Below are positions 32,542-34,280 of a DNA stretch of 64,000 nucleotides, one piece after another. The notes below the pieces were generated by a model. That model was not told the DNA's origin and made no database searches. It worked only from the letters and a program-made list of their open reading frames with translations. Origin of the DNA: a phage. The stretch lies in the NCBI GenBank assembly GCA_024790105.1, contig GCA_024790105.1_3053.1; one strand, 5' to 3'. Positions within the stretch are counted from its first letter, which is position 1. Every line of letters begins with the position of its first letter. Position numbers and translations under genes: made by a program.

Positions 32542-33471
32542 ATGTCAGGATATAATTCTCAGAATCCAAAGGAGCTCAAAGATGTCATTCTAAGACGTTT
32601 AGGGGCTCCAATTATTAATGTTGAGTTAACACCCGATCAAATCTACGATTGCATCCAGCGTGCCCTAGAATTATACGGTGAATACCATTTTGATGGACTT
32701 AACAAAGGTTTTCATGTATTTTATGTAGGAGACGATGAAGAAAAGTATAAGACTGGAGTATTTGATTTAAGAGGTTCAAACGTATTCGCAGTAACTCGAA
32801 TTTTGCGTACAAATGTTGGATCAATAACGTCAATGGATGGAAACGCTACATATCCATGGTTTACTGACTTTCTTTTAGGAATGGCTGGTATTAATGGTGG
32901 CATGGGGACTTCTTGTAATAGATTTTATGGACCAAACGCCTTTGGAGCTGATTTAGGGTATTTTACCCAGCTTACCAGTTACATGGGAATGATGCAAGAT
33001 ATGCTTTCTCCTATTCCAGACTTTTGGTTCAATTCAGCAAATGAACAACTCAAAGTCATGGGAAACTTCCAAAAATATGATTTGATTATCGTAGAAAGCT
33101 GGACTAAATCATACATCGATACAAACAAAATGGTTGGAAATACAGTAGGATATGGAACAGTTGGTCCGCAAGATAGCTGGTCATTATCTGAACGATATAA
33201 TAATCCAGACCATAATTTAGTAGGTCGTGTTGTGGGTCAAGATCCAGATGTTAAGCAAGGTGCTTATAATAATCGTTGGGTGAAAGACTATGCTACAGCT
33301 TTAGCTAAAGAATTAAATGGCCAAATTTTAGCACGTCACCAAGGCATGATGCTTCCAGGCGGTGTTACAATTGATGGACAACGCTTAATAGAAGAAGCTC
33401 GATTAGAAAAAGAAGCATTACGCGAAGAATTATACTTACTTGACCCTCCGGTGGGAGTGTTAGTTGGATGA
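32542..33471 (+). CDS. 13: gp13 neck protein
   Basis: 309 aa, as T4 gp13. Confidence 0.9.
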
Positions 33472-34280
33472 ATTATACTAAAATTTACAACTCTCTTATA
33501 GAAAGATCTCTTAAAAGAGGTCTTAATAAGAAAAAATTAGATTATTATACAGAATCACACCATATTGTCCCAAAATCCATGGGAGGAGATGACTCTAGAG
33601 AAAACAGGGTTTTACTGACAGCAAGAGAACACTATTTTGCGCATGAGCTTCTTTTTAAAATACACCGAAATTCTGAAATGGCTTATGCCTTAATAAAATT
33701 CTCCAAGGGTACAAAAGAGCAGAGAATTGTAAGTAAAGATTACGGATGGATTAAAGAGGAAACATCTAAAATTAGATCAGAAACCATTAAAAAGTTTTGG
33801 GCGAATCTATCACCAAATTTAAAACAGGAACGAATTAAAAAAGCCGCAAAAGGCATTAAAAAAACTAAATCTTTATGGACAGATGAAAAGAGAAAAGAAG
33901 TTAATGCAAATATTCGAAAAGCTTCTGTGAAATATTTGGAATCGTTATCAGAAAACGAAATGTTAGAATATAAAGAAAGATGTTCTAAACAAATGAAAGA
34001 TTTTTGGTCTGAGATTAAAAGCGACCCCAAAAAATACGAAAAGTATTTAAATAAACTATCTAAGGGTCTTGCAAAAGTCGAAAAGAGAAATTGCCCGCAT
34101 TGCGGAATTATATGTGATGTAGGAAATTATGGAAAATACCACGGCGATAAATGCAAAGTTATCACGGGTGTATCTCATAGCAGAGAAAAATTAAAATGCC
34201 CGCACTGTTCTAAAATCATGGATAAGTCTCACGCTAAAAGATACCATTTTGACAATTGCAAATTTAAGAAGGTCGAATAA
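33468..34280 (+). CDS. HNH homing endonuclease (Mob-like) inserted between genes 13 and 14
   Basis: 270 aa; HNH core [14 protein letters not shown]...[10 protein letters not shown]; C-terminal Cys4 motifs; ATGA overlap with gp13 stop and stop 1 nt before gp14 ATG. Confidence 0.85.

Follow-up and report, generated by a model that had tools for sequence, protein, structure and literature searches.

How can an endonuclease gene lie flush between two phage genes, its start codon overlapping the stop codon of the gene before it, and leave both neighbors whole? We address this question for two open reading frames (ORFs), here called ORF A and ORF B, in a 64,000-nucleotide stretch of phage DNA (NCBI GenBank assembly GCA_024790105.1, contig GCA_024790105.1_3053.1), which we refer to as the window. 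The window is from a T6-like Tequatrovirus: both insertion regions are 97-98% identical to phage T6, and equally to many T4-like phages of Escherichia, Shigella and Yersinia. ORF A lies in the gene order wac, 13, ORF A, 14, 15, 16, and ORF B in the order inh, segE, uvsW, ORF B, uvsW.1, uvsY.-2. Comparison of these junctions with those of related genomes makes it probable that both ORFs are promoterless, free-standing Mob (HNH) cassettes that sit in late transcription units, carry replacement tails for the upstream (host) genes, are expressed late, at a low level and coupled to those genes, and spread by homing.

ORF A (33468..34280, + strand, 270 amino acids) starts with an ATG (33468-33470) that overlaps the gene 13 TGA (33469-33471) as ATGA, and it ends with a TAA (34278-34280) that is followed by a single T (34281) and the gene 14 ATG at 34282. 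Its start is fixed by an in-frame TGA at 33441-33443, with no other start codon between there and 33468. ORF B (54874..55566, + strand, 230 amino acids) starts with a TTG (54874-54876) that overlaps the uvsW TGA (54875-54877) as TTGA. An in-frame TAA (54868-54870) two codons before the TTG rules out an upstream start, and the first in-frame ATG after it is codon 34, beyond the catalytic His-His pair (codons 27-28). The TTG is therefore the sole possible start of ORF B, as the initial annotation had proposed, and initiation at a downstream ATG is excluded. The same placement follows from the N-termini of all T4 Mob proteins, which begin MNYxxIY. The T6 RefSeq record labels both ORFs "homing endonuclease" and gives identical starts, including the TTG. 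The positions of both ORFs, their overlaps (ATGA, TTGA) and the 1-nucleotide (nt) gap to the gene 14 ATG, all given in the initial annotation, hold. So does its claim that the two genes are paralogs: the proteins are aligned by BLASTP at 35% identity over 161 amino acids (E = 6e-23) and share the N-terminal block that it had quoted. The paralogy and the TTG start are genuine, and a TTG start is unusual for the Mob family.

T4-type genomes have many four-nucleotide stop/start overlaps (T4 has at least 11 in its first 90 annotated features), and any Mob ORF starting Met-Asn (ATGAAY) automatically contains a +1-frame TGA. Taken by itself, the overlap is therefore unremarkable. The first four codons of both ORFs (33468..33480 and 54874..54885) hold stops in both other frames, a TGA and a TAA at codon 3 or 4, so a host reading frame entering either cassette is closed at once. 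In AT-rich DNA, these early stops may have arisen by chance.

Replacement ends of gene 13 and uvsW

In phages without the endonuclease (T4, T2, pSs-1 and PST), gene 13 ends CCA TTT GGA ATT TTG GTA GGT TAA, after which come T and the ATG of gene 14. The window and T6 share another tail (33450..33471, + strand), CCG GTG GGA GTG TTA GTT GGA TGA. The two versions differ by 8 bases in the last 8 codons and by two residues (F304V and I306V), which changes PFGILVG to PVGVLVG. The new tail holds a Shine-Dalgarno (SD)-like GGGAG (33453-33457), ten bases before the ORF A ATG, as well as the new TGA stop. Over genes 13 and 14, pSs-1 and the window are nearly identical, apart from the final 30 nt of gene 13, where 10 bases are mismatched. 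The recoded tail therefore belongs to the cassette; it is found at 90% identity or above in 50 records, as compared with 47 records that carry ORF A. At the other end of the cassette, the junction (AAGAAGGTCGAATAA followed by T; 34266..34281, + strand) reads AAG AAG GTC GAA TAA T ATG and provides an SD-like AAGAAGG for gene 14. The ORF A stop keeps the position of the native gene 13 stop relative to the gene 14 ATG (TAA-T-ATG). In the Moonvirus Merlin, which has no endonuclease here, genes 13 and 14 are joined by a native GGATGA overlap. Upstream of gene 13, the 32-nt spacer that follows wac contains a GGGGCC-GCAA-GGCCCC hairpin with a GNRA loop (32513..32528, + strand), directly before the gene 13 ribosome-binding site.

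The uvsW junction preserves more of its history. In T2 and pSs-1, uvsW ends ATG AAA ACA GTT AAT TTA TAA (KTVNL*), followed by GGGCTTCGGCCCTTTGGAGAAAAAGATG; in carriers of ORF B it ends ATG AAA GAG GTT AAA CTT TGA (KEVKL*). Alignments place this end within a recoded stretch of about 99 nt (54779..54877, + strand) with many synonymous third-position changes and the replacements T499E and N501K. The new tail holds an SD, AAAGAGG (54860-54866), 7 nt before the ORF B TTG. Window positions 54790-54877 are found at 95% identity or above in exactly 49 records, the number that carry ORF B (49/49 linkage). The native tail is present as well, at the far end of the cassette: ORF B ends AGA AAA ACA GTT AAT TTA TAA, and its last five codons and stop (55549..55566, + strand; AAAACAGTTAATTTATAA, KTVNL*) match the uvsW tail of T2 and pSs-1 at 18 of 18 bases and in the same frame, with identical sequence downstream. 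ORF B therefore ends on the original tail, frame and stop of uvsW. The insertions had been called scarless in the initial annotation; the recoded 3' ends of gene 13 and uvsW in carriers and the 18-nt uvsW relic that ends ORF B refute this. In the T4 reference, an old sequencing error at this place fuses uvsW and uvsW.1 (PMC1524935).

A hairpin, GGGC-UUCG-GCCC (55567-55578, + strand; predicted at about -9.5 kcal/mol), directly follows the ORF B stop and is itself followed by GGAG and the uvsW.1 ATG at 55592. T4 mRNA provided the first described C(UUCG)G hairpins (PMC4371310). The same hairpin, GGGCTTCGGCCC, follows the uvsW stop identically in the endonuclease-free T2 and pSs-1, and it is therefore native to the uvsW/uvsW.1 junction and lies outside the cassette. 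The proposal that it limits endonuclease levels is rejected, as the hairpin is native in T2 and pSs-1 and located 3' of ORF B. uvsW.1 (55592..55822, + strand; Pfam UvsW-1, 1.5e-30) is left intact by the insertion; it contains no diverged block and differs from T2, T6, PST and pSs-1 by 2-7 bases.

A more diverged stretch of uvsW farther upstream (about 54727-54775) is also found in phages LH2 and OES_C-3, which have the native tail and no ORF B. The full 170-nt diverged tract was considered as part of the cassette and rejected, since these two phages have its upstream half without ORF B. The upstream stretch is either a separable polymorphism or the footprint of recombination with carriers. In OES_C-3 and LH2, the carrier-type stretch (DDAGVVSKSKTSSKKYSH) is joined to the native tail, and these phages may be recombinants that lost ORF B or may have cleavage-resistant empty sites. 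At its other end, uvsW is directly preceded by segE (52749..53366, + strand; GIY-YIG), so that two different homing endonuclease genes flank uvsW. Across the first 150 nt of uvsW (53369..53520), segE carriers (the window, T4, T6 and PST) differ from T2 and pSs-1, which lack segE, by 7-9 mismatches per 30 nt.

The same junction is occupied in other genera. In endonuclease-free Dhakavirus IME08 and Jiaodavirus KpV477, a native ATGA overlap joins uvsW and uvsW.1. In the Dhakavirus phages Bp7 and UGJNEcP4, the site is occupied by another Mob gene, 48% identical to ORF B over the N-terminal 68 amino acids with a MobD-like remainder. Their left junction is AAAGAGGTnCAGCTTTGA, and a TTG start lies within CTTTGA, as in ORF B. 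Proteus phage PM2 (Bragavirus) carries a full-length ORF B ortholog with 52% identity, whose left junction is AAAGAGGTTAAATTGTGA and whose right junction is AAAGAGGTTAAATTATGA. The PM2 gene is flanked by direct repeats of the uvsW tail that match at 17 of 18 bases, and the lone difference turns the native ATG to GTG. All three phages resemble the window in the insertion point, in an AAAGAGGT SD within the uvsW tail, in a non-AUG start that overlaps the TGA, and in an endonuclease ORF that ends on the native uvsW stop. They differ from it in that the endonuclease stop overlaps the uvsW.1 ATG (ATGA) and no hairpin follows. What is new here is that uvsW-site Mob genes in three genera start with a non-AUG codon (UUG or GUG), in contrast to the AUG of the native junction. 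Within the recoded uvsW tract of Tequatrovirus, the last five codons (KEVKL) alone match the PM2-type tail, which suggests that the recoded tail was imported from a lineage with a tail of that type. An exact-pattern scan of viral contigs for the uvsW junction returned two contigs only, both with the same element.

From these comparisons, we propose that each cassette entered within the final codons of its upstream host gene, rather than in an intergenic position, and brought a replacement 3' end with it. A few amino acid changes in the replacement tail give rise both to an SD (GGGAG in gene 13, AAAGAGG in uvsW) and to a TGA shared with the start of the endonuclease (AUGA, UUGA). From there, the ORF runs to the original stop position of the host gene, at uvsW via 18 nt of the original tail. 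Signals farther downstream are thus left untouched. At the 13/14 site these are the 1-nt spacer and the start codon of gene 14, and at the uvsW site the CUUCGG hairpin, the ribosome-binding site and uvsW.1.

Family, domains and distribution

Both ORFs match phrog_655, annotated as "homing endonuclease" (6e-52 for ORF A, 2e-60 for ORF B). In Pfam, HNH_4 scores above the cut-off for ORF A and HNH below the cut-off for ORF B. The HNH motif is intact in both proteins, at residues 31-59 of ORF A (33558-33644) and residues 27-55 of ORF B (54952-55038), and both have the Mob-type N-terminal domain (MNYxxIY..., HHI(I/V)P..GG.D..N.V.L...EH..AH). In BLASTP comparisons with T4 MobA-E, ORF A is closest to MobB (50% over 111 amino acids, E = 2e-35), with MobD at 47% over about 111 amino acids, and ORF B is closest to MobE (52% over 106 amino acids, E = 2e-32), with MobD at 56% over 75 amino acids; MobC is just 37-44% identical to the two. 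These matches and phrog_655 confirm that both genes are Mob-like HNH genes, as they had been named in the initial annotation.

The C-terminal regions are modular and unlike each other. ORF A has two CX2CX12HX3C zinc fingers, at residues 209-229 and 244-264 (34092-34154 and 34197-34259), a spacing found in the two DNA-binding zinc fingers of I-TevIII (PMC1865063), and this region is 34% identical to the T4 I-TevIII remnant (E = 8.5e-7). ORF B has two NUMOD3 repeats, from about residue 106 and about residue 164 (7e-14), and an I-TevI-like helix-turn-helix at about residues 197-226, where the I-TevI DNA-binding domain (PDB 1i3j) is matched weakly (E = 0.006). The two proteins thus have a common catalytic module and different DNA-binding modules, as would be expected if their targets differ. 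tRNA is the sole Rfam family matched in the window, which contains no Rfam intron, and genes 13, 14, uvsW and uvsW.1, which flank the insertions, are all complete; both endonuclease genes are therefore free-standing. In the literature searched, we found no published treatment of or experiment on ORF A or ORF B of the T6 type.

Each gene is variably present at a fixed site. Of 506 matching phage records, 47 contain ORF A, in every case at the 13/14 junction, with at least 96% amino acid identity and within one genus; no ortholog was found at 13/14 in another genus, and the next best match is 37% identical and located at other loci. ORF B occurs in 49 of 634 matching records, again always at its own junction. 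When the two lists are compared, 16 records carry both ORFs, 31 carry ORF A alone and 33 carry ORF B alone. The genes assort independently, each in about one tenth of the matching Tequatrovirus records, which bears out their status as insertions. Between the T6-type and HY03-type alleles of ORF B there are 19 synonymous and 5 non-synonymous codon differences, and the protein is therefore under purifying selection.

Expression and competing explanations

We searched for promoters that could serve the two genes. The late-promoter consensus TATAAATA is located at 52713..52720 (+ strand), upstream of segE, as the sole exact match before the segE-uvsW-ORF B-uvsW.1 unit, and neither ORF A nor ORF B contains one or is immediately preceded by one. 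The interval 26140-39247 has no exact match on the + strand, so ORF A relies on read-through from upstream late transcripts. At both sites, overlapping stop and start codons are on one mRNA with no intervening promoter, the arrangement of a coupled pair, and translational coupling to gene 13 and to uvsW is plausible. After termination on gene 13 or uvsW, ribosomes would start again at the embedded SD or be recruited there; the endonucleases would be made late and at a low level, and the non-AUG start would attenuate synthesis further at the uvsW site. By analogy with the family, in mixed infection the endonucleases would nick or cut cassette-free alleles near the insertion point, and recombinational repair would copy the cassette, with the recoded tail and the insertion itself protecting the carrier.

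The start codon of ORF B bears on how it is expressed. A 40-nt segment that spans the SD, the TTG and the first codons of ORF B is identical in 39 of 49 records, and two of the remaining ten (HY03 and ZN18) have a single mismatch, in codon 7. Among distinct Mob-like genes from viral contigs, the presumed start is ATG in 51 of 55, GTG in 2 and TTG in 2, and both TTG cases are the ORF B element itself. A silent change of the last uvsW codon from CTT to CTA would turn the ORF B TTG to ATG. UUG starts about 3% of Escherichia coli genes, and in reporters GUG and UUG initiate at 10% to 100% of AUG (bioRxiv 10.1101/063800). The initial annotation had proposed that a weak start limits the endonuclease. 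This idea gains comparative support from the UUG, UUG and GUG starts in three genera set against ATG in the family at large, and while a limit on endonuclease levels is still inferred, selection for a weak start at the uvsW junction is a reasonable reading of these sequences.

Several observations weigh against coupled, mobile cassettes as the explanation. Both ORFs have a usable SD, so initiation independent of the upstream gene is possible. Predicted RNA folds at the two starts (-11.6 and -7.8 kcal/mol) are no more stable than those of shuffled sequences (z = -0.4 and -1.1), and in Bp7 and PM2 the ORF B start fold is not preserved. Only two or three independent lineages underlie the non-AUG pattern. 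ORF A is frameshifted in 6 records, which shows that some copies are decaying. No donor could be named for the recoded uvsW tract, which matches each of Tequatrovirus, Dhakavirus, Jiaodavirus and Bragavirus at a similar 68-74% identity. At the 13/14 site, the end of ORF A and the native gene 13 tail have just GGT...TAAT in common, too short as proof that the ORF A stop codon descends from the native gene 13 stop. A ribosome-binding-site-sequestering hairpin on early or middle transcripts, of the kind found for I-TevI, I-TevII, I-TevIII, segB and Aeh1 mobE, was also considered as a means of control and rejected, as the folds are like those of shuffled sequences and the UUCG hairpin is native and 3'. 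In the predicted fold at the ORF A start, the SD GGAG pairs with CUCC (33446-33449), which would fit coupling, in a structure no better than shuffles.

Some of these points would be accounted for if the Mob genes were translated independently from their own SDs, with the overlaps a product of T4-type genome compaction and the TTG a neutral variant. Recognizable SDs at 7 and 10 nt, the general frequency of 4-nt overlaps in T4 with a TGA built into ATGAAY, and the lack of significant inhibitory RNA structure all fit this possibility, to which we give some but lesser weight; however, TTG or GTG has been kept in three genera despite the silent CTT-to-CTA route and a native junction that has ATG, and ATG is the start in nearly all sampled family members. 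Where the two genes overlap, the HNH frame is offset by -1 from that of uvsW, so a -1 ribosomal frameshift at the uvsW 3' end might instead yield ORF B as a UvsW-HNH fusion, with no initiation at the TTG. This candidate was rejected, and we hold it to be barely credible: the HNH-frame TAA two codons before the TTG would permit slippage on the last codon only, there is no slippery heptamer, and the N-terminus of ORF B aligns residue by residue with the Met-Asn-Tyr starts of all Mob proteins.

Two further explanations concern what the proteins now do. ORF A and ORF B could be inactive relics whose homing has ceased and that persist by linkage to essential genes. The frameshifted ORF A copies, the defunct mobA and I-TevIII of T4 itself, and the confinement of near-identical ORF A copies to one genus are in line with this, yet the catalytic motifs are intact, codon differences in ORF B are mostly synonymous, and the patchy, independent distribution on near-identical backgrounds (pSs-1 compared with the window) suggests recent gain or loss; we regard decay of the whole element as unlikely. 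Alternatively, the HNH proteins might mainly serve the phage, through marker exclusion of co-infecting relatives or, for ORF A, a role in packaging. T4 Seg and Mob activity is known to exclude the markers of competitors (PMC2988022). ORF A lies three genes upstream of the terminase genes 16 and 17, but each endonuclease gene is absent from about 90% of the matching Tequatrovirus records and is thus unneeded for packaging or growth. Moreover, T4-type packaging uses the gp17 nuclease. On this evidence, service to the phage as the main function is quite improbable. Promoterless Mob cassettes with replacement host tails, expressed late through coupling and spread by homing, thus remain the explanation that we favor.

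Related systems, other features and significance

Parts of this arrangement have been described in T4. Seven of its free-standing endonuclease genes have been described under the term "promoterless cassette" (PMC2988022; PMC2790892), and overlaps such as the UAAUGA at nrdA/mobE led to a published proposal in 2010 that translational coupling limits endonuclease yield (PMC2988022), a hypothesis put forward for mobE, mobC, mobA, segC and segF. Like ORF B, T4 MobE (between nrdA and nrdB) is promoterless, co-transcribed with the upstream gene and has a start that overlaps the upstream stop; unlike ORF B, it has 141 amino acids, no NUMOD3 or helix-turn-helix tail, an AUG start and another locus. The internal terminator that regulates MobE was not found at ORF A or ORF B. 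Nicking and preferential inheritance have been shown for MobE (PMC2790892), whereas ORF A and ORF B are known here from their sequences.

MobC of T4 (between nrdD and nrdG) resembles ORF A and ORF B in its ATGA overlap with the stop of the preceding gene and in a duplication of part of the host junction: mobC and nrdG have the same first 7 codons (21 nt with 2 differences), and mobC overlaps the downstream gene. It is unlike ORF B in that the duplication comes from the start of the downstream gene and not from the end of the upstream one. In T4 (NC_000866, 42906..43538, - strand), mobC and the downstream nrdG both begin ATGAATTATGAYAGAATYTAT, which encodes MNYDRIY, and the MNYxxIY start found throughout the Mob family resembles the native NrdG N-terminus. 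This likeness could be a coincidence or a trace of family history.

Other members of the family are less similar in layout. MobB and MobD differ from ORF A and ORF B in having their own late-promoter-like sequences upstream, no overlap with the upstream gene, and other C-terminal domains. I-TevIII, encoded in the nrdB intron and active in phage RB3, has the same two CX2CX12HX3C zinc fingers as ORF A. It is intron-encoded where ORF A is free-standing, and dimerization and the double-strand break are properties of I-TevIII. In Aeromonas phage Aeh1, mobE sits inside nrdA ("genes in pieces"), and the host protein is split into two polypeptides. As with ORF A and ORF B, a Mob gene is thus inserted within a host coding sequence and not between genes; unlike Aeh1 mobE, ORF A and ORF B affect the last 5-8 codons, the cassette provides a near-equivalent tail, and the host protein is whole. 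The regulation of Aeh1 mobE is mentioned in PMC2988022. Most of the Mob-like relatives from viral contigs are preceded by a late-promoter-like sequence of their own and overlap no upstream gene, in a test of overlap that covers same-strand ORFs in the other two frames only. The embedded layout is a minority design in the wider Mob family, though a known one.

Other mobile or candidate mobile genes are present in the window. The large terminase gene 17 is split (36399..39251, + strand). An ORF at 36399..37292 encodes residues 1-256 of T2 gp17 plus 41 extra residues that begin with Cys; a second (37279..37878, 199 amino acids) has a TnsA-like/endonuclease I-type nuclease domain (Pfam, 5e-10); and a third (37866..39251) encodes 107 extra residues ending His-Asn, followed by Cys257 and the remainder of gp17. 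The locus looks like a "fractured gene", in which split intein halves (a short N-terminal and a long C-terminal one) surround a free-standing endonuclease; for split gene 17, no intein match was obtained in Pfam. The arrangement occurs in 17 of 511 matching records and is absent from T6. A Seg-type GIY-YIG ORF (9010..9675, - strand, 221 amino acids), 34% identical to the SegE of the window, lies inside a six-tRNA cluster (8933..10577, - strand), the position of T4 segB. Between the genes for gp18 (tail sheath) and gp19 (tail tube) is an ORF of up to 218 amino acids (41263..41919, + strand) with no Pfam match; similar ORFs are found in T6, PST and pSs-1, and T2 has none. Just after gene 5, a 288-amino-acid ORF (18329..19195, + strand) has no Pfam domain and weakly resembles the C-terminal part of T4 MobD (29% over 136 amino acids, E = 6e-5).

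These results change existing knowledge little: two uncharacterized members are added to the best-studied family of phage homing endonucleases, and the arrangement itself has already been discussed for T4. The refinements are the cassette-borne tail with its SD and stop, the ORF that ends on the host's original stop, and the recurrent non-AUG start at uvsW. For annotation, entries such as "uvsW-A/uvsW-B" or "DNA helicase (x2)" denote a normal uvsW and uvsW.1 with an inserted gene, and not a broken helicase. The cassettes offer an example, at base resolution, of how a selfish gene can settle in the end of an essential gene and leave it unharmed, by bringing a tail, a stop and a ribosome-binding site. 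The uvsW/uvsW.1 junction is a recurrent landing site in at least three genera, and with one silent uvsW base separating UUG from AUG, it provides a natural test of start-codon choice for a low endonuclease level. More tentatively, the Mob genes at uvsW/uvsW.1 might form a cross-genus class of cassettes with an expression adaptor (a recoded host tail, a stop, an SD and a selected weak UUG or GUG), for which duplication of the junction, as in mobC/nrdG, may be a general and harmless mode of entry. If so, the start would be kept weak since an endonuclease in so tightly coupled a junction would be over-produced, and host-junction duplication, seen also at T4 mobC/nrdG, would be a route by which Mob genes enter coding sequence while sparing their essential neighbors.

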